A DNA stretch of 41,282 bases from a bacterium DOLZORAL124_64_63 (GTDB lineage: Bacteria; Krumholzibacteriota; Krumholzibacteriia; LZORAL124-64-63), in the NCBI GenBank assembly GCA_002747875.1, contig PDQT01000216.1:1-41282 (forward strand), written 5' to 3'. Shown piece by piece: positions 12,600 through 35,375 of this stretch. Positions within the stretch are counted from its first letter, which is position 1; each line of letters opens with the position of its first letter. Under the pieces are notes generated by a model, which worked only from the letters and a program-made list of their open reading frames with translations, had not been told where the DNA came from and ran no database searches. Both the position numbers and the translations under genes were made by a program.

Positions 12600-12697
12600 G
12601 GGGTTATCCGGTCGTTCTCCAGGGGGAAGATGAAAGGGCTCAGGCGTGGAATCCGGCCCACCGGGAAAAGTTCCTGGCGGGCCGGCCTCCCATGCCG

Positions 12698-15179: not shown

Positions 15180-17690
15180 TCAAGGGAGCCTGTGCCAAGG
15201 GCCGCCTCGGGACCGCCAACGGCCTTGTCCGGCGCTGTTCCAGCGGAATTCCAGACTTCCATCCCGGTCCGTACGGCACACGGCCAGGGTGTCCGCTCCC
15301 ACCACGTAAGGCCCGTGGCTGGGGTGGCCGTACCGATTGCCCACCCCGCAGCTGATGACCACCAGACGGGGCCGGATCCGCTCCAGAAAGGCGGTGGTGC
15401 CGCTGGTGTGGCTGCCATGGTGCCCGGCCTTCCAGACCTGGGCGGCGGCAACCTGGTTTTCCGCCAGGAAGATGGCCTCTCCCCGGCCTTCCAGATCGCC
15501 GGTCCAGAGGTAACGCACCTTCCGGCCCTGGCGCAGGGCCACCACCATGGAATGGTCGTTCTCGTTGAGATGGGCCGGCAACGGCCGAACGGGATAGAGG
15601 ATGTCCAACTCCCACTCCCGCCAGCGATGGACCGGCAACGGCCAGATGCCGACCCGGGCGGAATCCGGCCGGGCTCTCCCGGAGCCGAGAACATGGAGAT
15701 CGGGGTCTTTGCTTCTCAGTGCCGGCACACCTCCGGTGTGGTCCTGATGCCCGTGGGAAAGGAGAACGGCATCCCAGGAACGGTGCCCCCAACGGGCCAA
15801 CCAAGGCAAGAGATCCCGTCGCATGGGGCTTTGCCGAAGGCCCTGCCGATCCCGCCAGCAGCCGCCGGTGTCGATCCACGCACTCCAGCCGTCGGGAAAC
15901 CGGACGAGGGCCGCGTCCCCTTGCCCCACGCTGAACTGCAGGACCCGCGGACCCCTGGGCCTGTCCACCAGACGCGGCCCGTAGGCCAAAGCGATCATCC
16001 CCAGACCCAGGGCCAAAGCGGCCCCGAGGGCAGCCACCGGAAGGCTTTGTCGGGCCCGCCGGGTCTGCAGGAAAGCGGCCGTCAGCAGGGACAGCCCCAC
16101 CCAACTGAGGACGGCGCCCGGTCCCGGACTGGGCAGCCCCAGCCCTCCGGTCCCCGCGACATTCCGGAAGGCCACGACGGCGGCCCACATTCCCCGCCAC
16201 AGGAGCCAGGCCCAAGCGGCCAGGCCGGGCCCCAACCAGGAAGGCAGCAACAGCCCCAGGACAGAGGCCCAGACCGCCAGGGAGAACAGGGGGATGGCCA
16301 CCAGATTGGCCAGCGGCGAATAGAGGCTGATCTGTCCGAATGACGCCGCCACCGCCGGCAGGGTGCCCCACTGGGCGGCCAGCCCCATTTGCAGGAGTTC
16401 GCCGACATGGCGGCCGATGCGTCCGCCCATGGCCAGTGCCGGGCCACGGATTCGCCCCCAAAGCAGAATGCTCCCCACCGCGCCATAGCTGAGCAGGACG
16501 CCCGTGTCCATGACCCGGGCCGGTTGCCAGAGGATATTCCCCCAATAGAGCAGCCCCAGCGCCTGCAGGCTGTCCACCCGGCGGCCCAGCGCCGGCCCCA
16601 GGGTGGCCAGCAGGGCCAGCCCGGCGGCGCGGACCACGCTGCCCGGCAACCCCGTCAACAGGATGTAGGGCGGCAGCAGGATCAGCAGCAGCGCCCAGCG
16701 CCCACCCGGAGAAAGGCCCAGGGAGCGGGCTGGAATCCACACCAGACCCAGCAGGACTCCCACATGCAACCCGCTGACGGCAAAGAGGTGAGCCAGCCCC
16801 AGCTGCCCGAAGAGCCGGGCCGTCCCGCGTGAGACGACGGTGCGCCGGCCCAGCAGGATGGCCCCGGCCAGTTCCCCTTCCGGCCCCGGCAGGAGATTTC
16901 GCAAACGGCGCGCCAGCTTCTCCCGGGTTTGCTCCAGGGCAGCGCGCAGCGGCAACCACCAGACGGTCGTGGACGTCAGCACCGTATCTTCCAAGGTAGC
17001 GTTCGGGAGGACCGCGCCCGCCCACTGGAGGTTGCGCCCGGCCAGATAACGGCGTTCCGAAAACATGCCGGGCAAGTCCTCGCCGCGGGGCACCCGGAAT
17101 CGGACCAGAGCCTGGTAGTGGTCGCCCGGTTGGGGTGGCGCCCCTGCGCCCCGCAGCAGGACACCTTCTCCCCGCCGCGGGGCTCTTGGCTCCAGGCGGG
17201 GATCCACGGCATCAACCGGCCGCCACCCCAGGATCCGTCCGGCGGCTTGCCAGCGCTCCTCGGGGCGCGGCTCGGCCCAGGATGTGATCCGGATCAGAGT
17301 CGTGCCGGTGAACTCCGTGAACCGCGAAGGGCCCCAGGCCGAGGGCGCATCCCGTTCGGGGCGGGTCAGCTGGGTCCGGGAGTGGATCAGGCCCTGCAAG
17401 GTGCCCAGCAGGACCAGGCTCAGGACCATGATCCCGGTCTGCCAGGCCTTTCGCGGGAACTTTAATAAAACAGGCCAAAGAATTGTGAGGTATATGATTG
17501 AGGTAAGTCCGGAGGTGGGCGCGGAGATGTCGGTATGCCCGGCCAGCCAGGCCCCCAGGTGAAAGCTCAAGGTGAAACCGAGCCCCCACAGGGGGGCCCA
17601 GAACCGCACCCAGAAAAGGCCGAAAGCGGTCAGTCCTCGCCGCGCGGTTTCAACTGGTAATGGTCTCCTTGGGGGTTCCAGAAGTGGCAT
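15180..17690 (-). CDS. comEC: DNA internalisation competence protein ComEC/Rec2 with C-terminal metallo-beta-lactamase domain
   Basis: N-terminal TM helices and an OB-like region, a polytopic competence domain, then VLLSHGHQDHTGG...AGHHGS. The start is uncertain: ATG 17690 overlaps the GGDEF gene by 61 nt and its first codons have poor G+C at third positions. Confidence 0.8.
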   Translation of the reverse strand: MPLLEPPRRPLPVETARRGLTAFGLFWVRFWAPLWGLGFTLSFHLGAWLAGHTDISAPTSGLTSIIYLTILWPVLLKFPRKAWQTGIMVLSLVLLGTLQGLIHSRTQLTRPERDAPSAWGPSRFTEFTGTTLIRITSWAEPRPEERWQAAGRILGWRPVDAVDPRLEPRAPRRGEGVLLRGAGAPPQPGDHYQALVRFRVPRGEDLPGMFSERRYLAGRNLQWAGAVLPNATLEDTVLTSTTVWWLPLRAALEQTREKLARRLRNLLPGPEGELAGAILLGRRTVVSRGTARLFGQLGLAHLFAVSGLHVGVLLGLVWIPARSLGLSPGGRWALLLILLPPYILLTGLPGSVVRAAGLALLATLGPALGRRVDSLQALGLLYWGNILWQPARVMDTGVLLSYGAVGSILLWGRIRGPALAMGGRIGRHVGELLQMGLAAQWGTLPAVAASFGQISLYSPLANLVAIPLFSLAVWASVLGLLLPSWLGPGLAAWAWLLWRGMWAAVVAFRNVAGTGGLGLPSPGPGAVLSWVGLSLLTAAFLQTRRARQSLPVAALGAALALGLGMIALAYGPRLVDRPRGPRVLQFSVGQGDAALVRFPDGWSAWIDTGGCWRDRQGLRQSPMRRDLLPWLARWGHRSWDAVLLSHGHQDHTGGVPALRSKDPDLHVLGSGRARPDSARVGIWPLPVHRWREWELDILYPVRPLPAHLNENDHSMVVALRQGRKVRYLWTGDLEGRGEAIFLAENQVAAAQVWKAGHHGSHTSGTTAFLERIRPRLVVISCGVGNRYGHPSHGPYVVGADTLAVCRTDRDGSLEFRWNSAGQGRWRSRGGPWHRLP

Positions 17691-19054
17691 TGGTTGCGGC
17701 CCAGGTCCTTGGAAAGAAAGAGCATGGCGTCCGCTTTGCGGTACAGTTCAAAGGCGTCCGCGCCCCCTGCGGGGAAGGTGGCCACTCCGAAGGAGCAGGT
17801 CACCGTCACCAACTCGGTCGTGCCCTGATGGATGATATCCTCGCGGAAGGGCGTGTTGACCAGCCGGCCCATCACCTCGCAGGCGGCTTCGGGATCGGTT
17901 TCCGGCAGGATGAGGGCGAATTCCTCCCCGCCGATGCGGCAGACGTGGTCGATACGCCGCAGTTCCTCTCGCATGCAGCGTGCCACCATCTTGAGGATCC
18001 GGTCCCCGTTGTGATGCTGGTACCGGTCATTGATGGCCTTGAAGTGGTCGATATCGCAGATGACCAGGGAAAGAGGCCGTTCCGCGCGCTGGGCGCGTTC
18101 CAGTTCCAGGGTGAACTGGCTGTCGAAAAAGGCCCGGTTGTAGACCCGAGTCAGGCTGTCGGTGTGGATGCGCTGGTTCACCTCCCGTTGGTGCTGCCAA
18201 CGGCGGGTGACAAAACTGCTGAGGCGCTTGGCCAGCCGCAACAGAGGCTTCTTTCCCCACCGTTCATGGGCTACCAGGAAAAGCAACCCGGCGGCGCTCC
18301 CTTTCTCATCCAGACTGGTACCCTCCAGGGGTTGGTACAACGGGACAGCCACGGCGGAAGCGAAGGTTCTTTGCCGGTCGGGGTCCGGGTAGCGCTGACG
18401 AATGAACCGGGGCAGTTCTTCGAGTGTGGGGATGTAGGCCGAGAAGGTGGGTTTGCGCAGACCGAGCCACCCGGAGGCTTGCTCCGCGGGGTCGATGTTG
18501 AAAACACGTCGGGGGCCTTCGGGCAGGATTTCGTCCCCAAAGAGAAGGACATAGAGGTCGAACTGGGGCGTGAAGCGTTCCAGCAGGCGCAGAATGCTGT
18601 CCAGGATGGTCCCCGTTTCTCCAGACTGGGGAAAACCGATTTCCAGATCCTGGGCGTGCTCCATGGCGCCCAGCATGCCCACGAAATCCACCAAGCTGTT
18701 GCTGGGCGGGGAGTCCGGAATCGCGGGCCGGGGCATGGGCGGTATCAGGTCCGACGCGGATGGCAGATCGATGGGTTCGGCCGTCGGCCGCAGGATGGCC
18801 AAATCCAGCAGGCGGTCCGTATCGCGGACCAGGAAATAGTCATGCCGGCCGTCACTCTGGCCCTCGATGGCCACCCGAAACAGCAGATTTTGTCGCTTCA
18901 GATCCGCCACCAGGGAACGAGCCAGGCTTTGCAGCCTATCGGCTTCATGGCCGGCAAGGGCTCGTTTGATGGCATACCGCAGTTGGGGAGCAGCCTTATC
19001 CAGTGGCAAGTCCTTGGTCAAGAGTTGCCGAATTTGTGTCGATCGATGCGCCAT
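17630..19054 (-). CDS. Diguanylate cyclase (GGDEF domain, GGEEF active site, RxxD I-site) with an unassigned ~290-aa N-terminal region
   Basis: LTRVYNRAFF...ICDIDHFKAINDRYQHHNGD...LRRIDHVCRIGGEEFALILPE. RRID lies 5 residues before GGEEF. GGAGG RBS before ATG 19054. Confidence 0.9.
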   Translation of the reverse strand: MAHRSTQIRQLLTKDLPLDKAAPQLRYAIKRALAGHEADRLQSLARSLVADLKRQNLLFRVAIEGQSDGRHDYFLVRDTDRLLDLAILRPTAEPIDLPSASDLIPPMPRPAIPDSPPSNSLVDFVGMLGAMEHAQDLEIGFPQSGETGTILDSILRLLERFTPQFDLYVLLFGDEILPEGPRRVFNIDPAEQASGWLGLRKPTFSAYIPTLEELPRFIRQRYPDPDRQRTFASAVAVPLYQPLEGTSLDEKGSAAGLLFLVAHERWGKKPLLRLAKRLSSFVTRRWQHQREVNQRIHTDSLTRVYNRAFFDSQFTLELERAQRAERPLSLVICDIDHFKAINDRYQHHNGDRILKMVARCMREELRRIDHVCRIGGEEFALILPETDPEAACEVMGRLVNTPFREDIIHQGTTELVTVTCSFGVATFPAGGADAFELYRKADAMLFLSKDLGRNQCHFWNPQGDHYQLKPRGED

Positions 19055-19095
19055 GGACCCTCCACGTCCTGAAAAAGCCGTATTTGAAAGAAATA

Positions 19096-19124
19096 ATTAT
19101 GACATAATGTAAGGAAATATGCAA
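19096..19124 (-). promoter_or_regulatory. Sigma-70-type promoter candidate for the GGDEF gene: TTGCAT-N17-CATAAT
   Basis: On the minus strand, -35 TTGCAT is at 19124..19119, the spacer is 17 nt and -10 CATAAT is at 19101..19096. This is ~40 nt upstream of ATG 19054, inside the only strongly AT-rich divergent intergenic region. Confidence 0.55.
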
Positions 19125-21151: not shown

Positions 21152-22246
21152 TCAGAACGCGTAGCTCACACTGATGCGATGGGTCACCTCATCGATGCCC
21201 AGACTGTCGCTGGCATAAGCATAATCCACCGTCAGGGGCATCAGACGCAAACCGGCCCCGGCGGTGATGTTGTTCCAGGCATCGGACTGGACGGCGGTCT
21301 GCAGATCCGAGTTCTCATCCGACCCGCTCACATAGCCCATGCGCAGGAAGACCTTGTGGCTGAAAGCCAGCTCCATGCCCAAGTGCAGGTTGGCGCTCAA
21401 ACTGCTGCTGTCCAGGCCGTCCGCTTTCCCCCGGTTCTGGAAGCGGGTTTCCAGGCTGCCGGCCAGGATCAGGCCCATGTTCCATTGGGGCATGTCCTGC
21501 CGCCAGGCCAGACCCGGCACCACCGCGGGGGCGATGATTTCGGTGTGGCCGGTGCTCCAGCTCAGGTAGGTGGTGGTGATGTCCTGGAGCTTGATACCGA
21601 AATCCAGGTTGCGCCAGACCCTAGGCCGTTTGAATCCCAGGTCGGCGCCGATGCCCAGGCTGCTGTACGAACCGATGCTCTGGCGGACGGCCTTGACCGT
21701 GGCGCCCATGTGCCATTGCCCCAACTGCTCGCCGTAGCTGAACATGAGGGCGAATTCCTGATCGCTCTTGAAGCGGATCTGATCCTGGAGATCGAACAGA
21801 CGCAGCAATTCCTCATCGCTGATGACGCCGTCGGCGGGATCCACATCCAGGCTGTCGGTCAGGTGGTCGGTGAAGGGGATGTCGTCCATCCCCAGGCGGA
21901 TCAGGCTGATCCCGATGCCGCTGCGCTCTCCGCCCAGCAGGTTCCAGTCCACGGGCCGGGTGTAGGCCACGAAGTCCCGGTCGATGAGGTCTCCGAAGAG
22001 CTCGGAATGCATGATCATCAGCTCCCCGCCGGTGGAACCGGTCAGGCCGGCGGGGTTCCAAAAGGTGGTGCTGGGGTCGTCGGCGATGGCGGTGAAGGCT
22101 CCGCCCATGCCCAGGGCGCGGGCTCCACCCCCATTTTCCATGAAGGCGCCGGCGTGCTTGGCGGCCTGGGCCTGAGATGTCAGGCAAATCATGGCGAAGA
22201 CAACGACGCATAGCCCCAGGACCGGGTTTACCCGTTTCCAGTACAT
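21152..22246 (-). CDS. FadL/PorV-like outer-membrane beta-barrel (PorV/PorQ-family-like)
   Basis: ATG 22246 is preceded by GAGGA. Signal peptide MYWKRVNPVLGLCVVVFAMICLTSQAQA, N-terminal signature GGGARALGMGGAFTAIADDPSTTFWNPAGL, and a C-terminus ending in ...SVSYAF typical of a barrel. The upstream 140 residues in the track are an artefact. Confidence 0.55.
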   Translation of the reverse strand: MYWKRVNPVLGLCVVVFAMICLTSQAQAAKHAGAFMENGGGARALGMGGAFTAIADDPSTTFWNPAGLTGSTGGELMIMHSELFGDLIDRDFVAYTRPVDWNLLGGERSGIGISLIRLGMDDIPFTDHLTDSLDVDPADGVISDEELLRLFDLQDQIRFKSDQEFALMFSYGEQLGQWHMGATVKAVRQSIGSYSSLGIGADLGFKRPRVWRNLDFGIKLQDITTTYLSWSTGHTEIIAPAVVPGLAWRQDMPQWNMGLILAGSLETRFQNRGKADGLDSSSLSANLHLGMELAFSHKVFLRMGYVSGSDENSDLQTAVQSDAWNNITAGAGLRLMPLTVDYAYASDSLGIDEVTHRISVSYAF

Positions 22247-22319: not shown

Positions 22320-23834
22320 TCAGGAGAAGCCATAGGCTTTGATTTTCCGGTACAGGGTTCGCTCGCTGATCCCCAAGCGCTCGGCCGCCTTGCGGCGGTT
22401 CCCGCCCGAGGCGTTGAGGGCTTCTTCGATGAGGGCCTTTTCCGCCGTTTGCAGGTCCCCGCTCTTCTCATTGTCCAGAGGACTGAAGCCGCTGTCCGCG
22501 GAGAAGGTCTCGTAGATCCGCCCCCCTTGGCCAGGAGGCCAGGGAATGGCCCCGTCAGCCTGCAGATCCCGTTCCTGGAGCAGGGCTTTGACCTCGCGCA
22601 ATTCCTGTTTGATTTCGAGCAAGGTATGGGCCAGAAGGCCGGGGTCGATGGAAGAGGCGCCGGCATTCAGGCCGAAAGGCACAGGCAGATAGGTGTCCGC
22701 CACGGTGTCGGTGTCTGCGTTCAGGGTTGCCGGCAGGTCCTCCACCTCCACCAGACCGCGTTGTTTCATGGCTACGGTGCTGCTGATGGTGTTGCGCAGT
22801 TCCCGCACATTGCCGGGCCAGGAGTGCCGGCGCAGGGTCTGCAGGGCCGATCGGCTGAAGCCGCGCACATGCAGGCCGTGCCGTTTGTTCTCCTCGGCCA
22901 GGAATCGTTCGGCCAGAATGGGGATATCTTCCGGATGATCCCGTAGGCTGGGTGTGTGGATGACCACCACGCGCAGCCGATAGTACAGATCCTGCCGGAA
23001 CTTGCCGACCTTCACCTGCCCGGCCAGATCCTGGTGGGTGGCGGCCACCAGGCGGATATGGCTTTTGATGAGGCCGCGGCCCCCCACCGGGGTGAATTCG
23101 CCCGTCTCCAGAGCGCGCAGGAAACGGGTCTGCATGGACAGGGGCATCTCCCCCACTTCATCCAGGAACAGGGTGCCGCCGTCGGCCCGCTTGAAAACCC
23201 CCTCGTGGTCGGCCACCGCCCCGGTGAAGGCTCCCTTGACGTGGCCGAAGAGTTCGCTTTCCAGCACGCCCTCGCTCATGGCGCCGCAGTTCAGGCTGAT
23301 GAAAGGCGCCGCGCGGCGGGGGCTGTTGTCATGGATGGCCCGGGCCACCAGTTCCTTGCCGGTGCCGCTTTCGCCCAGCACCAGCACGTTGATATCCAGC
23401 GGGGCGGCGTGGGCGATCATGCCCAGCATCTCGGCGATGGAGCGGCTGCGGCCGTAGATCCCGCTGTTCTGTCGCACGTCCCGCAATTGCAGAAGGCGTT
23501 GGACGACCACCTGGATCTCGTCGTGGGGGGTGTCCTCGGGCAGGGCGCGCACGGCCACCGTCCTGCCGGCTTCCGCGGCGAGAGCATCTTCCGGGGATTG
23601 GCCCAGCAGGACCAGATCCGCATCGGTATTCATGGAGAAGAACTTGCGCTCCACGTGGCGGTGCCGGGGATAGTCTCGGGTGTCGAAGAGAAAGACCGAG
23701 GTGTGGCCCTGGGCGATGCGGGCCAGGGCCTCGCTGGGGGCCTCGAACATGAACAGTTCCACTTGGGGCAATTCCCAACGGGAGGCGGAACCCACCAGCC
23801 TCATGTTGCGGCTGAGAATGACAACGGATGGCAC
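22320..23834 (-). CDS. Sigma-54-dependent transcriptional activator (bEBP, AAA+ plus Fis-type HTH) with a degenerate receiver-like N-domain (FleQ/FlrA-like architecture)
   Basis: Walker A GESGTGKE, the sigma-54 contact loop GAFTGA, Walker B LFLDEVGE, QDLYYRL, and the C-terminal HTH NRRKAAERLGISERTLYRKIK. In the N-domain the acidic pair is replaced (VVILSRN) and the KP position is LP. GTG start has an AAGGGG RBS. Confidence 0.9.
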   Translation of the reverse strand: MPSVVILSRNMRLVGSASRWELPQVELFMFEAPSEALARIAQGHTSVFLFDTRDYPRHRHVERKFFSMNTDADLVLLGQSPEDALAAEAGRTVAVRALPEDTPHDEIQVVVQRLLQLRDVRQNSGIYGRSRSIAEMLGMIAHAAPLDINVLVLGESGTGKELVARAIHDNSPRRAAPFISLNCGAMSEGVLESELFGHVKGAFTGAVADHEGVFKRADGGTLFLDEVGEMPLSMQTRFLRALETGEFTPVGGRGLIKSHIRLVAATHQDLAGQVKVGKFRQDLYYRLRVVVIHTPSLRDHPEDIPILAERFLAEENKRHGLHVRGFSRSALQTLRRHSWPGNVRELRNTISSTVAMKQRGLVEVEDLPATLNADTDTVADTYLPVPFGLNAGASSIDPGLLAHTLLEIKQELREVKALLQERDLQADGAIPWPPGQGGRIYETFSADSGFSPLDNEKSGDLQTAEKALIEEALNASGGNRRKAAERLGISERTLYRKIKAYGFS

Positions 23835-23916
23835 GTGAATCCCCTTAGGTAACGAAGAAACAATTCTGTCAAAGTGACATGATAAACGGAAATCCCTTCT
23901 TATGAAAGTTGTGCCC

Positions 23917-24134: not shown

Positions 24135-25040
24135 TCACCGCAGGTCGAGATAGGCGCTGGCCAGTTGCACGGCCTCACGGATCTGGGCCAAGTTGTCTTC
24201 CACCGTACGCACGTCCAGACCGGCGTTGCGGTGCAGGCTCTGCACATCGATCAACCGGGGATCGAAACCCAGGTCGCTGCGCGGGGGGCTCAGAGTGTTG
24301 GCCAGATAGTCCGCCAGGGCCACCAGGGCCACCACCTGCTCCCGGGGATTGGTGGGGGTGCCCAGAACCGGTTCATGGTGCTGCCCGAAGGCCCCGATCA
24401 GGATTTCCGGAAAGCGCCAGCTCTGGCCGAAGGCGGCGCCGATCTGCGCGTGGTTGAAACCGAAGGCCTCTTCTTCCTCCAAGCAAAGACTGCGCCCCGT
24501 ATCTTGGCGGTGGGCGATGACCTGAGCGTACTTCCGGGGCGCGTGGATTTCGAGAATGAACTTGCCCATGTCATGCAGCAGTCCCGCGGAGAAGACTTCC
24601 TCGGGATCGCGATAATCCACCATGGCGGCCAGGTGCTTGGCCACCGCGCCGGTCACCACGGAATGGCGCCACAACTCCCTGTAATCCATGTGCCCCTGGC
24701 TGCGGGAAACGGCGGAAACCACCGTGGTGGCCACGGTGATGCAGATGGCCACCTGCCGGACCGTGCGGTAGCCCAGGACGGCGATGCAGCGGTTGATGTC
24801 GGTCAGGTCGCCCCGGCGGGAATAGTAGGGGGAATTGGCCAGCTTGAGAATCTTGCTCATCAGGGGCGCATCCAGCCGCACCACTTCCGCCAGATCAGTG
24901 GCTCCGCTGTGTGGATCGTCCAGGACTTTGAGAATGGCCATCAGGGTTTCGGGGATCGAGGGCAGATCCTCGATGGTGGACAGCATCTTCTGCAGGTCGG
25001 GATTCTGTGTGGGATCGCTGGTCGTGGCGTGCGTGGGCAT
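24135..25040 (-). CDS. HDOD domain protein (paralogue 1)
   Basis: LPSIPETLMAILKVLDDP...LMSKILKLANSPYY...WRHSV...GLLHDMGKFIL...FGFNHAQIGAAFGQSWRFPE...HHEP. AGGAG RBS. Starts 9 nt after the upstream paralogue. Confidence 0.85.
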   Translation of the reverse strand: MPTHATTSDPTQNPDLQKMLSTIEDLPSIPETLMAILKVLDDPHSGATDLAEVVRLDAPLMSKILKLANSPYYSRRGDLTDINRCIAVLGYRTVRQVAICITVATTVVSAVSRSQGHMDYRELWRHSVVTGAVAKHLAAMVDYRDPEEVFSAGLLHDMGKFILEIHAPRKYAQVIAHRQDTGRSLCLEEEEAFGFNHAQIGAAFGQSWRFPEILIGAFGQHHEPVLGTPTNPREQVVALVALADYLANTLSPPRSDLGFDPRLIDVQSLHRNAGLDVRTVEDNLAQIREAVQLASAYLDLR

Positions 25041-25049
25041 GTTGCGCTC

Positions 25050-25952
25050 CTAAATGAAGATTTCCATCTCATCGGCCAGGGTTTCCTGCAGCAGAGTCGT
25101 GGTTTCGTCGAAGACATCCTGGGTGAAGCCCAGCAGCTGGTTGGCCGGGCAATTCACCAGATCGGTATCGGGCTCATCGATGAAGCCGATCCCCATCTGG
25201 CGGCAGATCTTGTTGGCTAGATCGAGGTAGAGCAGCAGTTGATTGTCCGGGCTCAGGGCCTCGGGATTGTGATGGTTGCGGATAACGTCCTCCAGAGCGG
25301 GGGAAAGTTTCCACTTGTTGATCAGCAACGCCCCCACTTCGGCGTGGGAAAAGCCCAGGGTGCGTTGTTCGGTTTCGTGGAAAGGCAGGCCCTGGTTGTA
25401 AACGGTCTGGACGATTTCATCGAAACGCTCGGGAACGTGCAGATTCAGCACCAGCTTGCCGATGTCGTGCATCAGACCGGCCAGAAAGGCCTCCTCCACC
25501 AGGGCCGGGACCCGCTTCTGGGCCAGGAGGCGGCAGGCGAAACCGGCACCGACGCTGTGTTCCCACAGGAGGCGTTCCTTCAGGCCGCTGCGGCTGTTGC
25601 GCGTGCTGTAGAGATTGCGGGCGGCGCTGGTCACCACCAGGCTACGGATGGAGTTGAAGCCCAGCATGACGATGGCTTCGGTCAGGGTCTTGATCTTCCG
25701 GCTGCAACTGTACATGGCGCTGTTGGCGATTTTCAGGATACGCGCGGTCATGGCCTGGTCATCGGCGATGACCTGCTGCAGCATCTGGGCGGACGTGTTG
25801 GGATCGGACGACAGCTCCAGGACCTTGCTGGCGACTTCGGGCATCGCCGGGAGGTCCCGGGTGGACATAATGATCTTTTGTAGCTGTGTTTGGGTCTGAC
25901 CCGCGTCGGCATTCTCAGGCCGAAGAGGCGGACCCGCCACCGTTGTGCTCAT
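25050..25952 (-). CDS. HDOD domain protein (paralogue 2)
   Basis: LPAMPEVASKVLELSSDP...ARILKIANSAMY...WEHSV...GLMHDIGKLVL...LGFSHAEVGALLINKWKLSP...HHNP. ATG 25952 with an AGGAGA RBS is preferred over the track start at 26000. Confidence 0.85.
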   Translation of the reverse strand: MSTTVAGPPLRPENADAGQTQTQLQKIIMSTRDLPAMPEVASKVLELSSDPNTSAQMLQQVIADDQAMTARILKIANSAMYSCSRKIKTLTEAIVMLGFNSIRSLVVTSAARNLYSTRNSRSGLKERLLWEHSVGAGFACRLLAQKRVPALVEEAFLAGLMHDIGKLVLNLHVPERFDEIVQTVYNQGLPFHETEQRTLGFSHAEVGALLINKWKLSPALEDVIRNHHNPEALSPDNQLLLYLDLANKICRQMGIGFIDEPDTDLVNCPANQLLGFTQDVFDETTTLLQETLADEMEIFI

Positions 25953-26026
25953 CGTCTCTCCTGAGGCGGCGGGCCGTGTTCGGACCGGAGTCCGGGCCAC
26001 CGACTATTGTCCTGTACGGCCTCTGG

Positions 26027-26473
26027 TCAGCCGCTTGTCGTCTTGTAGAGATATTCGACTCCGAAATCCTCGGCCTTTAGTGTGGAAAACTCCGTATCCG
26101 GCATTTCCAGATTTAGTTGACGACGCATATCCTCCAGGGAGTCGGCCACCCGACCGAGGCGATCTGCCAGGGCCTGGATCTCCGGTCCGTTGGTCCTCCG
26201 AGCCGCCGTTTCCGTCGGACCGGTGAAGCTGCCGGCGGTGTAGCCCGTTTCGGTGGTCCGTACGGTTTCCGCCGGGGCCGTTGGCGGGGTGGCCCTTTTG
26301 CGCAGCTTCAGGCCGGCGGGTCTTGGCAGGGCGGGCGCGTGCAGACGCCAACGGCGCAACTGGGAGCCGATGGCCACCACCAGCAGGGTGGTGCCCAAGG
26401 CCACGGCCGCGGCTGCGGCGTAGAAGACGGGGCCCAGGTCCGGGATACGGTGGAAGATGATGTCCGCGTTCAC
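26027..26473 (-). CDS. Hypothetical single-pass membrane protein (148 aa), N-out/C-in predicted, helical C-terminal region
   Basis: GTG start is preceded by AAGGAG with a 7-nt spacer. TM segment VFYAAAAAVALGTTLLVVAIG is followed by RRWRLH...KLRKR. I recognise no family. Confidence 0.6.
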   Translation of the reverse strand: MNADIIFHRIPDLGPVFYAAAAAVALGTTLLVVAIGSQLRRWRLHAPALPRPAGLKLRKRATPPTAPAETVRTTETGYTAGSFTGPTETAARRTNGPEIQALADRLGRVADSLEDMRRQLNLEMPDTEFSTLKAEDFGVEYLYKTTSG

Positions 26474-26498
26474 GTGGGGTCTCCTTCGGTCGGTCGGA

Positions 26499-26840
26499 TC
26501 ATGCTCGCATATCGATCAGGCTGCCCAGATCCTCGTCTTCTTCAGCGGTTTTGGGGTCATTTTCGGAATCGGTGGTGAAACGTCCAGCCGGTCGGCGCTG
26601 CTGCAGCTTCCGGCGCCGCCGCCGCCGGCGTTCCCGGCGTCGGTCCTCGTCGGGATCGATTTTGCTGTCCGCGGTCTTCTCCGTTTCCTTGACCCGCTGG
26701 GTCTTCAGGGACTCGTCCTTGGACTGTTGCTCCTGAAACCCGGTGGCGGGCTGCGTCGCCTGCTGGGCGCGGGCCTGGGTCTTGGCCACAGTCCCCATCT
26801 GGGCCAGCTGGGTGGGCATGGAAACACCGTCGCCTGCCAC
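26499..26840 (-). CDS. Hypothetical highly charged, probably disordered protein (113 aa) with an RRRERRRRRRRK tract
   Basis: GTG 26840 is preceded by GGAAAGGAAAAG. Codon third positions are mostly G/C. It sits 53 nt after fliA and 25 nt before the next ORF. I recognise no family. Confidence 0.5.
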   Translation of the reverse strand: MAGDGVSMPTQLAQMGTVAKTQARAQQATQPATGFQEQQSKDESLKTQRVKETEKTADSKIDPDEDRRRERRRRRRRKLQQRRPAGRFTTDSENDPKTAEEDEDLGSLIDMRA

Positions 26841-26893
26841 GTTCTTTTCCTTTCCCTAGGCCGCGCGGGCGGCTCTTCCGATCATCATCCGGC

Positions 26894-27856
26894 TCAGGCG
26901 CCGGGCCACTGGCCGGTGGCGGCCAGGTAGCCCAGATAGCTGCAGATCTGGAAGATGGAGAACGCGGCCATGATGTTGACCGGTTCCAGCTTCTCTTCTT
27001 CCACGGCGCAGACCGTCCGGGGATGGGCTGGAGATTTCTTCTGCTTGTTCTGGATGCGCTTGGTGATCTGGCCGATGCTGCTTTTGCCCTCATGGCGCTG
27101 GATCTTGCCCTTGAGACGCAAGATGGCCTTGGTGTGGATCTGGCAGACGCGGCTTTCGGTCACGTCCAGGATCTCGCCGATTTCCTTGAGGGTCAGCTCC
27201 TCGTAGTAGTACAGGACCAGAACCAGCTGCTCCTTATCCGGCAGTTCGTTCATGCGCTGGCCGATGAGTTCCTTCATCTCCTGTTGGGCCAGCACCTGCT
27301 CCACATCTTCGGTGCGGGGGTCGGCCAGAAGTTCTCCCAGGCTACTGCCCTGTTCGCTGTCATCGCTGCGGTTGTCCGCGTCCAGGGACATGATCGTGGC
27401 GATGCTCACCTCTCCCACCAGACCGTCCAGATCCTGCACGTCGATCCCCAGGTGGTCGGCCACCTCCGCGTCGGTGGCGTGGCGCCCCAACTGGCCTTCC
27501 AGGTGGCTGTAGGCCTCCTCCAGTTGCTTGGCCTTGCGGCGCAGGCTACGGGGGAACCAGTCCTGGCTGCGCAGCTCGTCCAGGATGGAGCCCCGGATAC
27601 GCGGGATGGCGTAGGTTTCGAACTTGATGCCCCGGTCGGGATCGAAATTGTCGATGGCCTGGATCAATCCCAGCAGACCGGCACTGATCAGATCGTTGAA
27701 TTCCACGTAATGGGGAAGGCCTATGGCCATGCGACCGGCCACGTATTTGACGATCCGGGCATAGATATCGACCAGTTCCTGCCGGGATTCCTCACGCCTG
27801 CTGCCCTGCAGGTTCTCCCAGACCTCTTGATGGGCAATGAGTGTGCTTTCCGCCAT
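26894..27856 (-). CDS. fliA: Flagellar sigma factor FliA (sigma-28 / WhiG family) with a ~68-aa C-terminal extension
   Basis: Region 2: DLISAGLLGLIQAIDNFDPDRGIKFETYAIPRIRGSILDELR. Region 4: LVLVLYYYEELTLKEIGEILDVTESRVCQIHTKAILRLK. ATG 27856 (GAAAGG RBS) is preferred over the track's TTG 27886. Confidence 0.9.
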   Translation of the reverse strand: MAESTLIAHQEVWENLQGSRREESRQELVDIYARIVKYVAGRMAIGLPHYVEFNDLISAGLLGLIQAIDNFDPDRGIKFETYAIPRIRGSILDELRSQDWFPRSLRRKAKQLEEAYSHLEGQLGRHATDAEVADHLGIDVQDLDGLVGEVSIATIMSLDADNRSDDSEQGSSLGELLADPRTEDVEQVLAQQEMKELIGQRMNELPDKEQLVLVLYYYEELTLKEIGEILDVTESRVCQIHTKAILRLKGKIQRHEGKSSIGQITKRIQNKQKKSPAHPRTVCAVEEEKLEPVNIMAAFSIFQICSYLGYLAATGQWPGA

Positions 27857-27895
27857 TGTACGGCCTTTCTGAAGGTTGGTTGACAACCTGGTATA

Positions 27896-27910
27896 GCAGT
27901 ATCCGTGCCA
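27896..27910 (-). promoter_or_regulatory. Sigma-54 (-24/-12) promoter candidate upstream of fliA: TGGCACGGATACTGC
   Basis: The minus strand reads cgaTGGCACGGATACTGCTAtacc against the consensus TGGCACG-N4-TTGCW. GG and GC have correct spacing. It lies in the 90-nt gap between orf79 and fliA, about 40 nt upstream of the ATG. Confidence 0.65.
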
Positions 27911-27946
27911 TCGCCTTCATGAACCATCCGGTTAGAAGGCGGCTTC

Positions 27947-28186
27947 TCATGTTTCCGTCTTGACGGTCTCTGCGGACTTGTCGGCTTCATTGGCCGGAGC
28001 TTCGGTCTGCTCGAAATACGGGATGATCATCATCAGCATGGCCAGCACAGCCCCCAGGAAGAAAAAGCCCAGGTAGCTGAGCACGACCCGCTTAAGGGTG
28101 CTGAGCAGCCCCCAATCCTGCCAGATCCCGGCCCCCAGGGTGATGACGGCTGCCAGCAAGGCGATGGTGTTGACGATCCTCTGCAT
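27947..28186 (-). CDS. Hypothetical small membrane protein (79 aa, two predicted TM helices) in the position normally held by flhG
   Basis: Its ATG is 3 nt after the flhF TAG (TAG-AAG-ATG). Predicted TM segments are IALLAAVITLGAGIW and LGFFFLGAVLAMLMMII. I recognise no family. Confidence 0.6.
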   Translation of the reverse strand: MQRIVNTIALLAAVITLGAGIWQDWGLLSTLKRVVLSYLGFFFLGAVLAMLMMIIPYFEQTEAPANEADKSAETVKTET

Positions 28187-28189
28187 CTT

Positions 28190-29329
28190 CTAGCCTTCTT
28201 CGCGCGCCTGCTGTTCCCGGTAGCTGTTTCCCAGGGGCTGTCCCAGGATGAAGTCCAGCAGGGCGCCGCTCGCGGCGATCTCCAGATTCCCGTCCCAACC
28301 CACCAGGCTCAGGGGCAGCGGGATGCGGTCCACGTATTCCAGAACCTTGCCGGGGCGGCGGGTGGCCTCCAACCCCGTCAGGGCCAGCCAATCGCAATTC
28401 CAGTTCCGCGCCGCTTCGGACAGGACATCCATGTCGGCCGGGTCGTAAAAGGACGGCACAACCATGTGACGATGGAAGGTGGTGTTCCCGCTCAGCCAGC
28501 TGTGCAGGATCCGTCCCGGGTCCATCTGCGGATGCCCCACGGGGGGCATGTCCACCAGCACCACTTCATATTTGCTCAGGTGCTTCTCGCTGCGGGTCAG
28601 TTGCTGAGGCTTCTGGATGATGGCCGCGTCGAAACCCAGCCGGGCAGCCTCCACCTGTAACTGCTTGACCCTGCCGTGGTGGGGCGGCATGACGCTCAGC
28701 ACCAGGGTGCGGCGGCCCATTTTCCGGAGCCGGGCGGCGGCGTTGAGGATCAGCTCGAAGGAGTCCGCGGAACGGGGTCCCAGGAAGGCGTGGCAGCCGT
28801 AAAAGCCGTCCCATTCGCAGTTGCTGGCCTTCAGGTTCTCCGCCAGCCAGACCAGGGCACCGGCCCGGTTGTCCGGACGCTGGCCGGTTTCGCTCAGGAA
28901 GCGCGTCAGAAGTTTCTGGACGGTGTGCTCGCTGGTGCCCGCGTCCAGGAAGCTCTGGGCCAGGGGGTTGTTCGCCAGCATGCCGCCGATGCCGTCCCGC
29001 CGGGTGAACTCTTCGGCGATCTCCGCCACCAGGTTTTCGATACGCGCCACTTCGGTCAGGAGCTGGTCGGCCGTCAGGGAGGAATCCCGCCCAGGAACCG
29101 TGGAGTTAATGGCCCGCGGGCTCATGGCGCCCGGTGCCTGGACGGTGACCTCCACGAACTTCTCGTGGCCCAACCCGTGAGGCTGCCGCCGGGTGACGGT
29201 GCGGCTGCCCAGGATCACGGCATCCTCCCCGTAGGTCTGCTTGACCAGCTTGTAGGCCCCTTTGAGGGTTGGGGCGGTGACCACCGGGTTTTGATCAGCC
29301 GGCGGCCTGTTTCTGTTGCGCGAATCCAT
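28190..29329 (-). CDS. flhF: FlhF-like flagellar biosynthesis protein with degenerate SRP-type GTPase motifs
   Basis: The N-terminal B-domain block LKGAYKLVKQTYGEDAVILGSRTV is typical of FlhF. The NG domain is collinear with B. subtilis FlhF, but G1 reads GPRSADSFEL, G3 reads DMPPVG and G4 reads TGLEAT. It sits directly after flhA. The start is uncertain because it overlaps flhA by 35 nt. Confidence 0.75.
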   Translation of the reverse strand: MDSRNRNRPPADQNPVVTAPTLKGAYKLVKQTYGEDAVILGSRTVTRRQPHGLGHEKFVEVTVQAPGAMSPRAINSTVPGRDSSLTADQLLTEVARIENLVAEIAEEFTRRDGIGGMLANNPLAQSFLDAGTSEHTVQKLLTRFLSETGQRPDNRAGALVWLAENLKASNCEWDGFYGCHAFLGPRSADSFELILNAAARLRKMGRRTLVLSVMPPHHGRVKQLQVEAARLGFDAAIIQKPQQLTRSEKHLSKYEVVLVDMPPVGHPQMDPGRILHSWLSGNTTFHRHMVVPSFYDPADMDVLSEAARNWNCDWLALTGLEATRRPGKVLEYVDRIPLPLSLVGWDGNLEIAASGALLDFILGQPLGNSYREQQAREEG

Positions 29330-31409
29330 GGGTCACCACCGTTCCAGCCGACTGGACGCTCACCGTGGGAGAAACCTCGGTGTAGCCCATGACGGCCAAG
29401 TTGGGGTAGGTCGGCTCGATGAGTTGCTTGACGAAAAGACGGATGGGCGTGGGCACCAGCAGCACGGGCGGCGGCCCGCTGGAATAGGCGGTCCGCAGAA
29501 CCCCCTCCATGTTGCCCAGGAAGGCGCGGGTGAAGGCCGGGTCCAGGACCACGCCGCCGGCGCGATCGCTTTCCCGCCCGGCCTGCAGCAGGGTCTGCTC
29601 CACCTCCGGGTGCAGGCTGATGGCATGCAGGCGGTTCTCGCCGTCGGCGAAGAGGGCGGTGATGCTGCGCCCCAGGGCCTCGCGCACCTTGCCCGTCAGG
29701 TAGTCGTTCCCCAGGCCGCTGCCCGTGTGGTTGGCCAGGGTTTCCAGGATGGTGATGATGTCCTTCACCGGAATGCGTTCGTGCAGCAGGTTCATCAATA
29801 CGTTGTGCAGAGTGTTGACGGGCACCTTGTCGGGAATCAGATCCTCCACCAGGGCGGGCGCGTACTCGCGGATGGACTCGCACATGTCTTTGACGTCCTG
29901 GCGGCTGAGCAACTCGTCACTGTGGCTGCGGATCAGTTCGCTCAGGTGGGTGGCCAGGACGGCCGCGGGTTCCACGACGGTGAAACCTTCCACCTCGGCC
30001 TCGGCCTTCTTCTCCGGATCGATCCACAGGGCCGGCAGGTTGAAGGCCGGTTCGGTGGTCGCCGTGCCCTCGATGTGGCCCGTGTCCGGACGGGTGCTCA
30101 TGGCCAGCAGACGGTTGGGGAAAAGCTCGCTGCGGGCGATCTCCACGCCCTTGAGTTTGATCACGTAGTTGTGGGCGCCAAGCTGCAGGTTGTCCCGCAC
30201 CCGGATGGGGTGGATGAAGATGCCCAGCTCGCTGCCCACCTGGCGCCGGATGTTGCTGATCCGCGTCAAGAGGTCGCCGCCGCGCTTGCCGTCCACCAAG
30301 GGGATCAGACCGTAGCCGATCTCCAGTTCCATCCGGTCCAGGATGAACAGCTCCTCGCCGCGCAGGCCCTGGGGCTCTTCCTCCTCCTGGGTGGCTTGGG
30401 CCTCCGCTTCGGCGGCGCGGGCCTCGTTGTCATCGTACTGCTCGACGCGGTTGCCCATGATGAAGCCGGCGCCGGCGGTCGCCGCGGCGAAGACCAGGAA
30501 GGGGATGGTGGGCAACCCGGGGATCATGGCGAAGATGGTCATGGCGCCCGATGCCAGGTACAGGGCCTTGCGCTGCCGGAAGATCTGCAGGGTCAGGGTC
30601 TGGCCCAGGTTCAGGCTGCTGCTGCTGCGGGTCACCACCAGGCCCGCGGCGGTGCTGACCAGCAGGGACGGGATCTGGCTGACCAGGCCATCGCCCACGG
30701 TCAGCACGGTGAAGCGGCTGAGGGCTTCGCCTGCGGGCATGCCCATCTGCACCATGCCGATGATGAAGCCGGCCGCGATGTTGACCACGGTGATCAGGAT
30801 GCCGGCGATGGCGTCGCCCTTGACGAATTTGCTGGCACCGTCCATGGCGCCGAAGAATTCCGCTTCCTGGGCGATTTCGGCACGGCGGGCCTTGGCCTGG
30901 GCTTCGTTGATGAGCCCGGCGTTCAGGTCCGCGTCGATGGCCATCTGCTTGCCGGGCATGGCGTCCAGGGTGAAGCGGGCCGCCACCTCGGCGATGCGCC
31001 CGCTGCCCTTGGTGATGACCATGAAGTTGATGATCACCAGGATGATGAAGACGATGACGCCGATCAGGTAGTTCCCGCCGACAACAAAATCCCCAAAGCT
31101 GTCAATTACCTGACCGGCGGTGCCCGTGCTGAGGATCAGGCGCGTGCTGGCCACGTTCAAGGACAGCCGGGTCAACGTCAAAATCAGAAGCAGGCTGGGA
31201 AAGCTGTTGAAGTGCAGGGGCTCTTTCAGGTAAAGCGATACCAGAAGGACAGTTATGGAGAAACTGATGCTGAAGGTGAGCATCAGATCCAGCAGGGCCG
31301 GCGGCACCGGAATCACCAGCAGGCCCAGGATGACCATCACAGCCACCGCGCTCAGCACGTTGCTGTTGGCCAGAACCAGATCCCTGTCGATGACGTTTTC
31401 TTGTGCCAA
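29295..31409 (-). CDS. flhA: Flagellar export apparatus protein FlhA
   Basis: 704 aa with FHIPEP-family blocks (GRIAEVAARFTLDAMPGKQMAIDADL..., FVKGDAIAG). TTG start with a GGAGAGGG RBS. Confidence 0.97.
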   Translation of the reverse strand: MAQENVIDRDLVLANSNVLSAVAVMVILGLLVIPVPPALLDLMLTFSISFSITVLLVSLYLKEPLHFNSFPSLLLILTLTRLSLNVASTRLILSTGTAGQVIDSFGDFVVGGNYLIGVIVFIILVIINFMVITKGSGRIAEVAARFTLDAMPGKQMAIDADLNAGLINEAQAKARRAEIAQEAEFFGAMDGASKFVKGDAIAGILITVVNIAAGFIIGMVQMGMPAGEALSRFTVLTVGDGLVSQIPSLLVSTAAGLVVTRSSSSLNLGQTLTLQIFRQRKALYLASGAMTIFAMIPGLPTIPFLVFAAATAGAGFIMGNRVEQYDDNEARAAEAEAQATQEEEEPQGLRGEELFILDRMELEIGYGLIPLVDGKRGGDLLTRISNIRRQVGSELGIFIHPIRVRDNLQLGAHNYVIKLKGVEIARSELFPNRLLAMSTRPDTGHIEGTATTEPAFNLPALWIDPEKKAEAEVEGFTVVEPAAVLATHLSELIRSHSDELLSRQDVKDMCESIREYAPALVEDLIPDKVPVNTLHNVLMNLLHERIPVKDIITILETLANHTGSGLGNDYLTGKVREALGRSITALFADGENRLHAISLHPEVEQTLLQAGRESDRAGGVVLDPAFTRAFLGNMEGVLRTAYSSGPPPVLLVPTPIRLFVKQLIEPTYPNLAVMGYTEVSPTVSVQSAGTVVTHGFAQQKQAAG

Positions 31410-34590: not shown

Positions 34591-35001
34591 TCAGGAGACG
34601 GGACCGACCTTCTGGAAGGGCAGCTTGCCGCCCAGCAGATCCCGCAGCCCCTGGCCCGTGGGCCGGGCGGGTTCTCCGTTGCCGTGGGCCCGCTCGAATT
34701 GGGCCAGGCTTTCTTCCTTGAGGATGACCATGGATCCGTCATGGCGGTAGATATAGTGGACCCTGTCTCCCAGACGCAGAATCTGGATTTCCCGCTTCGG
34801 TCCCAGATGCCACACGGCCAGCAGGCCGGTGTTTCCGGAGGCCGTCCCGCCATGGAGCTTCTTGAGCAGCTTGAGGAACAGCAGCAGCAGCCCGAAGACG
34901 ATGGCCAGCCCCCCCACGGTCTGCCACCAGGAGCCTTGGGCGCCGAAGGTCTCGGCCGGCAGGGGGATGGCCGCTTGCGCCAGGAAGAAACCCGGCATCA
35001 C
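34591..35001 (-). CDS. fliO: Flagellar biosynthesis protein FliO (FliZ)
   Basis: 136 aa with a single TM (VGGLAIVFGLLLLFLKLL) followed by LAVWHLGPKREIQILRLGDRV. It lies between fliN and fliP. ATGA overlap with fliN. Confidence 0.8.
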   Translation of the reverse strand: MMPGFFLAQAAIPLPAETFGAQGSWWQTVGGLAIVFGLLLLFLKLLKKLHGGTASGNTGLLAVWHLGPKREIQILRLGDRVHYIYRHDGSMVILKEESLAQFERAHGNGEPARPTGQGLRDLLGGKLPFQKVGPVS

Positions 35002-35375
35002 AGCACCCTCTTGAGGCGTTCCACACGGTTCAGCAGCTTGGTGATGCGCACGGCGAAGTGATCATCCACCACCACCACTTCGCCGCTGGCCAGCAGGGCG
35101 CCGTTGACCAGGATGTCCACCGGCTCGGAAACCTGTCGGGAAAGCTCCACCACGCTGCCGTTGCTCAGGTTCAGCACGTCGCGGAACTTCAGGCGGGTGC
35201 GCCCCAGCTCCACCGTGATCTGCAGCCCCACATCCAGCAGCAGGTCCAGGTTGGCCGTATCCGGCACCTGTTCTCCGAGATCGGACAGGAGGGACGCCGA
35301 TTCCTCATCGCCCACGGGATTGTCCGCCGTGGCCAGGGTTCCGCCGGTCGCGTTCATTTTGATCTCGTCGGTCAT
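34998..35375 (-). CDS. fliN: Flagellar motor switch protein FliN
   Basis: C-terminal SpoA domain: LDVGLQITVELGRTRLKFRDVLNLSNGSVVELSRQVSEPVDILVNGALLASGEVVVVDDHFAVRI. Confidence 0.93.
   Translation of the reverse strand: MTDEIKMNATGGTLATADNPVGDEESASLLSDLGEQVPDTANLDLLLDVGLQITVELGRTRLKFRDVLNLSNGSVVELSRQVSEPVDILVNGALLASGEVVVVDDHFAVRITKLLNRVERLKRVL

Follow-up and report, generated by a model that had tools for sequence, protein, structure and literature searches.

A conserved tail of the flagellar export operon in Krumholzibacteriota carries a motif-eroded FlhF, an extended sigma-28 factor and three families of small proteins

We analyzed the tail end of the main flagellar export operon in a 41,282-nucleotide stretch of DNA (contig PDQT01000216.1, positions 1 to 41,282; hereafter the 41-kb window, or the window) from bacterium DOLZORAL124_64_63, a member of the Krumholzibacteriota. 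Directly 3' of the export-gate gene flhA, seven open reading frames (ORFs) follow one another on the minus strand: an eroded flhF, here called flhF', a small gene for a protein with two transmembrane (TM) segments (orf79), the sigma-28 gene fliA, orf113, orf148 and two genes for HDOD-domain proteins (Table 1). An ORF check of the window reproduced all seven genes, with the coordinates and gaps that an initial annotation of this DNA had given them. The end of flhA overlaps the start of flhF' by 35 nucleotides, and the gaps from flhF' through to the last HDOD gene measure 3, 90, 53, 25, 74 and 9 nucleotides, with ATG starts that are backed by orthologues. For fliA, the ATG is supported by the orthologue alignment and by a ribosome-binding site (the maximal ORF would begin at a TTG at 27886). 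The parts are of known kinds, namely FlhF, sigma-28, a sigma-54 cascade and HDOD proteins, and their configuration was not found in the literature that we searched. This configuration comprises an FlhF family without GTPase motifs or an adjacent flhG, a sigma-28 factor with a C-terminal tail, and three families of small proteins tied to them.

The three small ORFs are genuine genes to which no family can be assigned, as had been supposed. Scans against Pfam and NCBIfam returned nothing credible for orf79, orf113 or orf148 (the matches of orf79 were sub-threshold noise), and public annotations list the proteins of the module as hypothetical, as plain FliA or as 'flagellar biosynthesis GTPase FlhF'. 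The GC content at third codon positions (GC3) of all tail ORFs is coding-like (0.76-0.86). Scanning one genome per GTDB species with the signature F[YF]GCHAF[LM] yielded 28 loci, mostly from metagenome-assembled genomes (MAGs) labelled Candidatus Krumholzibacteriia or Krumholzibacteriota; these were read to about 10 kb on either side, and gene order was judged where the contig reaches far enough. We also found an identical 9.8-kb Logan contig for the locus in the window. The FlhF' homologues share 40-85% identity, none of them carries a precomputed Pfam domain, and those with a named source are Krumholzibacteria. In a phmmer synteny table of about 28 species-level genomes and additional metagenome contigs, the order flhA-flhF'-orf79-fliA-orf113-orf148-HDOD-HDOD-sigma-54 activator-outer-membrane protein is fixed, the sole variation being two additional genes ahead of the activator in one locus (L001). 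This recurrence goes far beyond chance. We then estimated the ratio of nonsynonymous to synonymous substitution rates (dN/dS) by the Nei-Gojobori method in eleven close pairs, setting aside an all-pairs version that was inflated by saturated dS. The values were 0.08-0.27 for flhF', 0.09-0.56 for orf79, 0.04-0.33 for orf113, 0.18-0.58 for orf148, 0.02-0.26 for the core of FliA and 0.04-0.41 for its tail. Since the values lie well below 1 across the tail genes, all of these, small ORFs included, are real and evolve under purifying selection, and the view that they form a conserved, lineage-specific module of the Krumholzibacteriota holds up.

The same data bear on a scenario that the initial annotation had itself named as one that would refute it, in which the locus is a decaying duplicate: a degenerating flagellar copy with flhF' as a pseudogene-like relic and small ORFs that do not code. 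Such a history could explain both the motif erosion in FlhF' described below and the presence of three ORFs without a family. However, whatever core export genes are visible (flhA, flhB, fliPQR, fliMN, motAB and flgE) lie in this locus, all of them intact, and the scenario is excluded by the low dN/dS, by an order and by reading frames kept across the phylum, by the confident fold prediction for FlhF' and by the coding-like GC3. We give it virtually no weight.

In addition, a deeper clade reveals which part of the arrangement forms its core. Remote orf113 relatives obtained by profile search (two of which, P0251 and P0267, lie on contigs of less than 1 kb with little context) were used to scan metagenomes of the Joint Genome Institute, and this recovered the loci L038:3-3009, L039:6538-9880, L041:6590-9852 and L044:5811-9260 as well as fragments; one of the contigs comes from a bin named Krumholzibacteria. 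The order here is flhA-flhF-orf79-fliA-orf113-orf148-like gene-sigma-54 activator-outer-membrane protein, and the HDOD pair is absent, so that the conserved core consists of five genes plus the activator. The HDOD pair, whose domain is full-length in both genes (positions 1-196 of 196 of the PF08668 profile are covered), is accessory, an insertion that belongs to the clade of the window. The seven genes therefore stand as a conserved module within that clade, but not as one indivisible unit. Separately, we observed the Krumholzibacteria-type module in MAGs labelled 'uncultured Fibrobacteraceae' or 'Gemmatimonadales' (L010, L022, L029, L034 and L015), labels that likely reflect inconsistent bin taxonomy rather than a wider distribution of the module.

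Table 1. Features of the flagellar operon tail and of the genes that adjoin it in the 41-kb window.
Feature	Coordinates	Strand	Basis or remark
flhA (FHIPEP export gate)	29295..31409	-	ORF; PF00771 on identical Logan contig and orthologues
flhF'	28190..29329	-	FlhF orthologue; signal recognition particle (SRP)-type NG fold, eroded GTPase motifs
orf79, two-TM protein	27947..28186	-	Kept after flhF' in all loci; no Pfam family
Sigma-54 type promoter (TGGCAC-N5-CTGCT), predicted	27895..27910	-	About 40 nucleotides upstream of the fliA ATG
fliA, sigma-28 of the FliA/WhiG family, 320 residues	26894..27856	-	TIGR02479; Pfam regions 2, 3 and 4
FliA C-terminal extension, residues 254-320	26897..27097	-	Orthologue alignment; dN/dS of the tail
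orf113, highly charged, predicted disordered	26499..26840	-	Adjacency to fliA; alignments; dN/dS
orf148, single N-terminal TM segment	26027..26473	-	Alignments; hydropathy; dN/dS
HDOD protein, 300 residues from ATG	25050..25952	-	PF08668, E 1.2e-60; HD, E 7e-9
Second HDOD protein, 301 residues	24135..25040	-	PF08668, E 2.5e-52
Sigma-54-dependent activator (AAA+ and Fis-type helix-turn-helix)	22320..23834	-	PF00158, E 9e-66; HTH_8
Predicted outer-membrane protein, weak UPF0164 match	21152..22246	-	PF03687, E 0.0014; signal-peptide-like start at 22246

FlhF' keeps the fold of its family while its GTPase motifs are eroded. Positions 6-206 of the FlhF model TIGR03499 align with residues 17-185 of FlhF' only (E 2.2e-15), the score of 57.4 bits falls below the equivalog cutoff of 174.15, and the Pfam SRP54 match is sub-threshold (E 0.028; 14.5 bits against 22.7). 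We aligned the protein with a canonical FlhF as reference (P0080, with GPTGVGKTT, DTYRIAA, DTAGRS and TKLDE) and found all four motifs altered, in line with the motif-eroded FlhF of the initial annotation. Specifically, G1 (GxxGxGK[ST]) reads GPRSADSFE (28754-28780), G2 (DTxR) reads PPHH-GR, G3 (DTAG) reads DMPPVG (28535-28552) and G4 (TKxD) reads TGLEA (28364-28378). An AlphaFold2 model built from the family alignment has a predicted local distance difference test (pLDDT) score of 84 and consists of a beta-alpha-beta-beta N-terminal domain, which is itself structured (pLDDT 79-90), a helical N domain and an alpha/beta G domain. Foldseek places this model with the NG domains of Ffh and FtsY (E ~1e-12) and with the FlhF structures 8r9r and 2px0 (TM-scores of 0.73 and 0.70).

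The loss extends to the family as a whole, in which the full G1-G4 set occurs in none of the approximately 110 aligned members. Most of them have GxxGxGR[TS], with arginine replacing the Walker A lysine, D[ML]P instead of DTAG and [ST]RxD instead of TKxD. The lysine survives only in the deeper clade (GRPGSGKTT, GEAGCGKTT and GGPGAGKTD), where G2 is already gone, G3 reads DTPA or DTPP and G4 takes the form [ST]R.D (TRLD, SRQD and SRLD). The erosion is thus graded, and the subclade of the window is the most eroded. In turn, the family has a near-invariant signature of its own, made up of SNCxWDGFYGCHAFLG (28778-28825; residues 169-184), FHRH (28466-28477; residues 285-288) and WNCDW (28388-28402; residues 310-314). 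These motifs surround the first strand of the G domain and two later strands and together supply up to three cysteines and three histidines, which may form a metal or redox site. We found no description of a degenerate FlhF in the literature searched: a 2025 review of FlhF-FlhG diversification (PMC12826062) mentions none, and the literature that we found on Krumholzibacteriota notes merely the presence of flagellar genes. In Shewanella, FliG binding maps to the first 44-60 residues of FlhF, and binding of the NG domain to the landmark protein HubP does not depend on nucleotide (PMC11236974). A GTPase-dead FlhF could therefore plausibly still act as a tether.

The partner gene flhG is missing from its usual place. 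Six-frame translations of the window and of every related locus fetched contained no ORF with the deviant Walker A motif of MinD and FlhG (KGGxGK[ST]), in agreement with the initial annotation, and flhF is followed by orf79 rather than flhG in both clades, including the deeper one with its P-loop lysine. The initial annotation had likewise seen nothing like FlgM, and a family scan of the proteins of the 41-kb window gave no FlgM match. In other bacteria, flgM usually lies outside the flhA-flhF operon, and its absence from the window therefore says little. This position, together with the fact that our reading of the flanks covered about 10 kb, leaves room for the module being an addition to normal flagellar control rather than a replacement of it. 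Under such an arrangement, FlhF' would be a scaffold with a dispensable GTPase, a normal FlhG (or a MinD substitute) and FlgM would be encoded elsewhere, and the small proteins would be accessory assembly factors: orf79 a membrane protein associated with the export apparatus, orf113 a secreted or chaperone-like protein and orf148 an activator of the SwrB/FipA type. We see this as a serious possibility, albeit one that falls short of probable. It has to accommodate that the GTPase site of FlhF, the known biochemical target of FlhG, is gone in the window's clade, and that flhG is missing from its usual place in every locus, those of the P-loop-lysine clade included.

We next turn to fliA, which appears to have a promoter of its own. 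The initial annotation had pointed to a sigma-54 motif in the gap between orf79 and fliA. This motif, TGGCACGGATACTGCT, matches TGGCAY-N6-TGCW, as no other site in the 41-kb window does, and a conserved ribosome-binding region, CAGAAAGG, lies between it and the fliA ATG. A GG-N10-GC element (TGGCA[CT]GGA..[CG]TGC[AT]) is found at a constant distance from the fliA ATG in all 28 loci, with at least 9 of the 11 consensus bases in 24 of them, and it is also present in the deeper clade (L038). Given this conservation, we conclude that fliA has its own predicted sigma-54 promoter. The sigma-54-dependent activator encoded directly after the module, in conserved synteny in both clades, is a candidate regulator of this promoter; its N-terminal ~120 residues match no REC or FleQ domain in Pfam. 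A sigma-70-like promoter match was observed in the 300-nucleotide gap upstream of the activator gene (23879-23906, minus strand). The gene that follows the activator in both clades always encodes the outer-membrane protein resembling UPF0164, a Treponema family. The sigma-28 promoter consensus TAAA-N14-16-CCGATA has no match in the 41-kb window, and a terminator scan of the minus strand found none between the tail genes, with fewer matches than in shuffled sequences.

The FliA protein itself belongs to the sigma-28 family and carries a segment that the family model does not cover. It scores 270.9 bits with TIGR02479, above the cutoff of 189.6, and among NCBIfam models the WhiG equivalog fits it best (311.9 bits). 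The sigma-70 regions 2, 3 and 4 end at about residues 250-252 of 320, which leaves a 67-residue tail outside the family model. That FliA has an extra C-terminal segment was an early suggestion, and the alignments bear it out: the best homologues in a collection of 5.8 billion proteins are 314-352 residues long in 120 of 120 cases, so that the extension is family-wide. The tail begins with an invariant-rich motif (RHEGKSSIGQITxxI), continues with a charged linker that varies and closes with a conserved hydrophobic helix, LEPVNIMAxLxLxQLxSxLxWL..G.WP (26897-26986; given as EPVNIMAxxSxxQxxSYLxWL..G.WP in the feature annotation). Within this helix, P292, N294 and A297 are invariant, and M296, Q303, L308 and W310 are nearly so. 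Its Kyte-Doolittle maximum of 1.59 over 19 residues is borderline for a membrane span, and the conservation of particular residues favours a defined contact with protein over a generic anchor. AlphaFold2 modelling of full-length FliA (pLDDT 55), of use for secondary structure only, places helices at residues 261-273 and 292-314. One remote FliA (L036, 2-862) ends with ...LERVNV where the helix begins and so lacks the tail helix; a relative of orf113 lies 22 nucleotides downstream of it.

Of the small genes, orf113 is the one most closely tied to sigma-28. It lies directly 3' of fliA in all loci, including the remote ones, the locus with the short tail (L036) and the clade without HDOD genes. 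The family is narrow, with 60 clusters at 50% identity among 1.84 billion representatives, nearly all of about 95-130 residues. Its members share an N-terminus of the form M.GDG[VF]S.[PK]T.[LI].Q.G.VA[KR].Q (MAGDGVSxPTxLAQxGxVAKTQA in the feature annotation), a centre with KxQRVKETE...IDPD, a basic block with an invariant D.R..R...R (poly-Arg in the window; a poly-Arg/Lys stretch in the feature annotation), an acidic stretch and the C-terminus G.L[IV]D[LIM][RK]A (LGxLIDxRA). The protein of the window has 113 residues, of which 40% are charged, and with a mean hydropathy of 0.331 against an Uversky boundary of 0.423 it is predicted from composition to be disordered. Two in-frame FliA-orf113 fusions were also found. 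In L022 (9159-10778), a Ser codon stands where the close relatives L025 and L032 have the stop codon, and in the metagenomic P0238, a fragment at a contig edge, the C-terminus of FliA runs into orf113-like sequence. These could be true fusions, cases of stop-codon read-through or assembly errors. The strict adjacency and the fusions point to sigma-28 rather than to a structural role, which again speaks against the small proteins being mere additions to an otherwise normal system. In the simplest reading, orf113 would be a partner of sigma-28, for which inhibition, stabilisation and export are alike possible.

Several candidate relationships of orf113 were rejected. Among 31 members (21 + 10) searched at E<=10, no Pfam family was matched at all. 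Homology to FlgM is thus rejected in the lack of any PF04316 match, while a functional analogy is kept. The C-terminal LGxxIDxxA had hinted at a YjfB-like 'putative motility protein' (PF14070), an identity that was not supported on testing, with no PF14070 match in the same 31 members, although HMMER filters drop very weak matches and a remote relation may thus have been missed. A search of the orf113 profile against Protein Data Bank chains gave three weak hits, none of them called FlgM or RsiG, and we likewise set aside an RsiG-like identity.

Control of sigma-28 by cyclic di-GMP (c-di-GMP) would be another way to read these genes, with the HDOD pair, the Arg-rich orf113 and a nearby GGDEF protein forming an analogue of the RsiG-WhiG system. 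Several features are in line with such a switch, namely the WhiG equivalog as the best model for FliA, the two co-oriented HDOD genes so close together in the operon, the invariant D-x-R...R...R basic stretch of orf113 and a GGDEF diguanylate cyclase gene (17633-19096, minus strand; PF00990, E 5e-41), which lies just beyond a divergent SLT/LysM gene and has a GGDEF counterpart at the corresponding place in L003 and L005. We nevertheless consider the switch improbable. The deeper clade keeps fliA-orf113-orf148 without the HDOD pair, which rules this pair out as the core mechanism; the orf113 profile matches no solved structure by the name of RsiG; and Pfam scans found neither PilZ nor another known c-di-GMP-binding domain.

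The remaining two small proteins are predicted to be membrane proteins. orf79 contains two hydrophobic segments and, in the alignment, a conserved core (GLWQDWG...LKR...AYLGFFFLG) with a loop of the form GLWQDWG...LKR, and its start, 3 nucleotides past the stop of flhF', suggests translational coupling and a partnership with FlhF' in a 1:1 ratio. orf148 has one hydrophobic segment at about residues 13-39, followed by a basic juxtamembrane stretch, from which the C-terminal part is predicted to be cytoplasmic. This part comprises a variable linker, a TxTGY motif, a helix with L..RL..A...LE.L and the sequence S.LK.....VEY.F+.G.G. Searches with orthologues and profiles gave no Pfam match and no relatives in the Protein Data Bank for orf148. 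Its identity as FipA was rejected, since DUF2802 was found in 0 of 22 orthologues at E<=10. FipA and SwrB are nonetheless single-pass proteins that are encoded at this operon position and act in assembly, which fits the idea of an accessory role for the small proteins as well.

Upstream, the minus-strand operon comprises flgD (partial), flgE, flbD, motA, motB, fliL, fliM, fliN, a 156-residue ORF, fliP, fliQ, fliR, flhB and flhA. The 156-residue ORF (34594-35061, minus strand) occupies the position of fliO between fliN and fliP and is without a Pfam match, as are its orthologues of 125-141 residues in L001, L004 and L005. The remaining genes of the window are topA, secA, purH, purC, comEC and genes for a DUF494 protein, an SLT protein, an M6-type peptidase, the GGDEF protein and the SLT/LysM protein. 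The peptidase gene (9759-13115, minus strand) encodes a protein of about 1100 residues with a peptidase domain of the M6 type (immune inhibitor A) and a FlgD-Ig-like domain at its C-terminus and is unrelated to the flagellar operon.

Overall, we propose that this operon tail is a conserved, phylum-specific arrangement of the Krumholzibacteriota in which two control points have been rebuilt, a proposal to which we give roughly even chances. At the first control point, FlhF' would be a folded protein of three parts (N-terminal, N and G domains) that lacks the residues for GTP binding and hydrolysis. Most likely, it would be a tether that works without nucleotide and still recruits early components of the flagellum (FliG/FliF) to a site at the membrane, with orf79 as its probable membrane partner. 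The cycle driven by FlhG would be gone, in keeping with a locus that does not encode this GTPase-activating partner. At the second control point, transcription of fliA would start at the sigma-54 promoter in front of it, with the downstream-encoded activator as the probable driver, and would run on through orf113, orf148 and, in the clade of the window, the two HDOD genes. orf113 would most likely bind sigma-28 or its tail and modulate its availability, a FlgM-like role without FlgM homology, and orf148, anchored at its N-terminus and with its bulk in the cytoplasm, would probably act like SwrB or FipA and couple the control of sigma-28 to the membrane-embedded basal body. That the module has replaced FlhG and FlgM is plausible from the sequences, and we infer this replacement as we do all of the interactions named here. 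A more far-reaching version holds that the phylum has given up the FlhF-FlhG GTPase cycle as well as the FlgM secretion checkpoint: a pseudo-GTPase FlhF, possibly with a Cys/His metal or redox site, would be held by orf79, and sigma-28 would be sequestered close to the membrane through its tail, orf113 and orf148, without any homology to FlgM. We regard this version as rather doubtful.

It is important to point out that several observations weigh against the proposal. First, the genomes could encode flhG, flgM or a further canonical flhF beyond the flanks of about 10 kb that were read. Second, some nucleotide binding may persist in the deeper clade, as suggested by its Walker A lysine and by the Asp-Thr retained at G3. 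Third, the two FliA-orf113 fusions could be sequencing or assembly errors, as one involves a single-base change of a stop codon and the other a contig edge. Fourth, the limits of the transcription units are drawn from consensus scans for promoters and terminators, and the FliA model is too poor to place the packing of the tail. Fifth, the functional analogies of orf113 and orf148 derive from size, composition, topology and position, with no similarity to FlgM or DUF2802. Finally, the organisms that carry the module are uncultured, and the contacts between the proteins, their localisation and the expression of their genes are proposals.

FlhF and FlhG are presented as a conserved switch behind nearly all flagellation patterns, operating through GTP-dependent dimerisation of FlhF and hydrolysis stimulated by FlhG. 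Against this background, an FlhF that is under purifying selection while it sheds its nucleotide-binding motifs stepwise, with flhG not adjacent and to all appearances phylum-wide, amounts to a natural experiment on the functions of FlhF that need no GTPase cycle. The module thereby suggests a different way of controlling flagellum assembly. It also offers further leads: a previously unannotated extension of sigma-28, the orf113 family as a candidate sigma-28 regulator other than FlgM, and a protein resembling FipA and SwrB without a known domain.

We finally compared the module with known systems. The FlhF-FlhG switch pairs an SRP-type GTPase with a MinD-type ATPase to set the place and number of flagella (PMC12826062). 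The module resembles it in having flhF' directly after flhA, in the FlhF-type N-terminal region and predicted NG fold of the product and in sharing an operon with fliA. It differs in that G1-G4 are lost or altered throughout a family whose window member scores far under the equivalog cutoff, in the Cys/His-rich signature (SNCxWDGFYGCH, FHRH and WNCDW) and in the gene next door, which in no locus is flhG and which instead encodes the two-TM protein, described as translationally coupled. FipA, an interaction partner of FlhF in gamma-proteobacteria, has 163 residues with an N-terminal TM segment and a cytoplasmic DUF2802; its gene follows right after the flhA-flhF-flhG-fliA-che operon, and reports of it are confined to genomes with FlhF as well as FlhG (PMC11620751). 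orf148 shares with it the short N-terminal segment, the single TM segment, a cytoplasmic helical C-terminal part as predicted, a size of about 150 residues and a place at the end of an flhF/fliA operon, whereas its orthologues are without DUF2802 and no flhG was seen at their loci. In Bacillus subtilis, SwrB is a single-pass membrane protein encoded after sigD at the end of the main flagellar operon; full activity of sigma-D depends on this protein, which also activates the export apparatus of the flagellum (PMC4526659). Here the resemblance is positional and topological only, orf148 being a single-pass protein encoded past the sigma-28 gene at the operon end, although orf113 intervenes between fliA and orf148. 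FlgM (PF04316), known from solved complexes with sigma-28, binds and inhibits this factor and leaves the cell through the flagellar type III secretion system once the hook is complete. FlgM and orf113, which show no sequence similarity, are alike in that orf113 too is small, highly charged, predicted to be disordered and genetically tied to the sigma-28 gene; what sets orf113 apart is its place directly 3' of fliA, along with conserved motifs at both termini and a poly-Arg block, all of these absent from FlgM. The RsiG-(c-di-GMP)-WhiG system is known from Streptomyces, and sigma factors with regulatory C-terminal extensions are known as well. Unlike the latter, the extension described here is carried by a sigma-28 rather than an extracytoplasmic function (ECF) sigma factor and ends in a hydrophobic helix that is borderline for a TM span, and no similarity to RsiG was found in the module. 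What it has in common with these systems is a sigma factor of the FliA/WhiG family with an extra C-terminal segment, a partner gene just downstream and genes related to c-di-GMP nearby.

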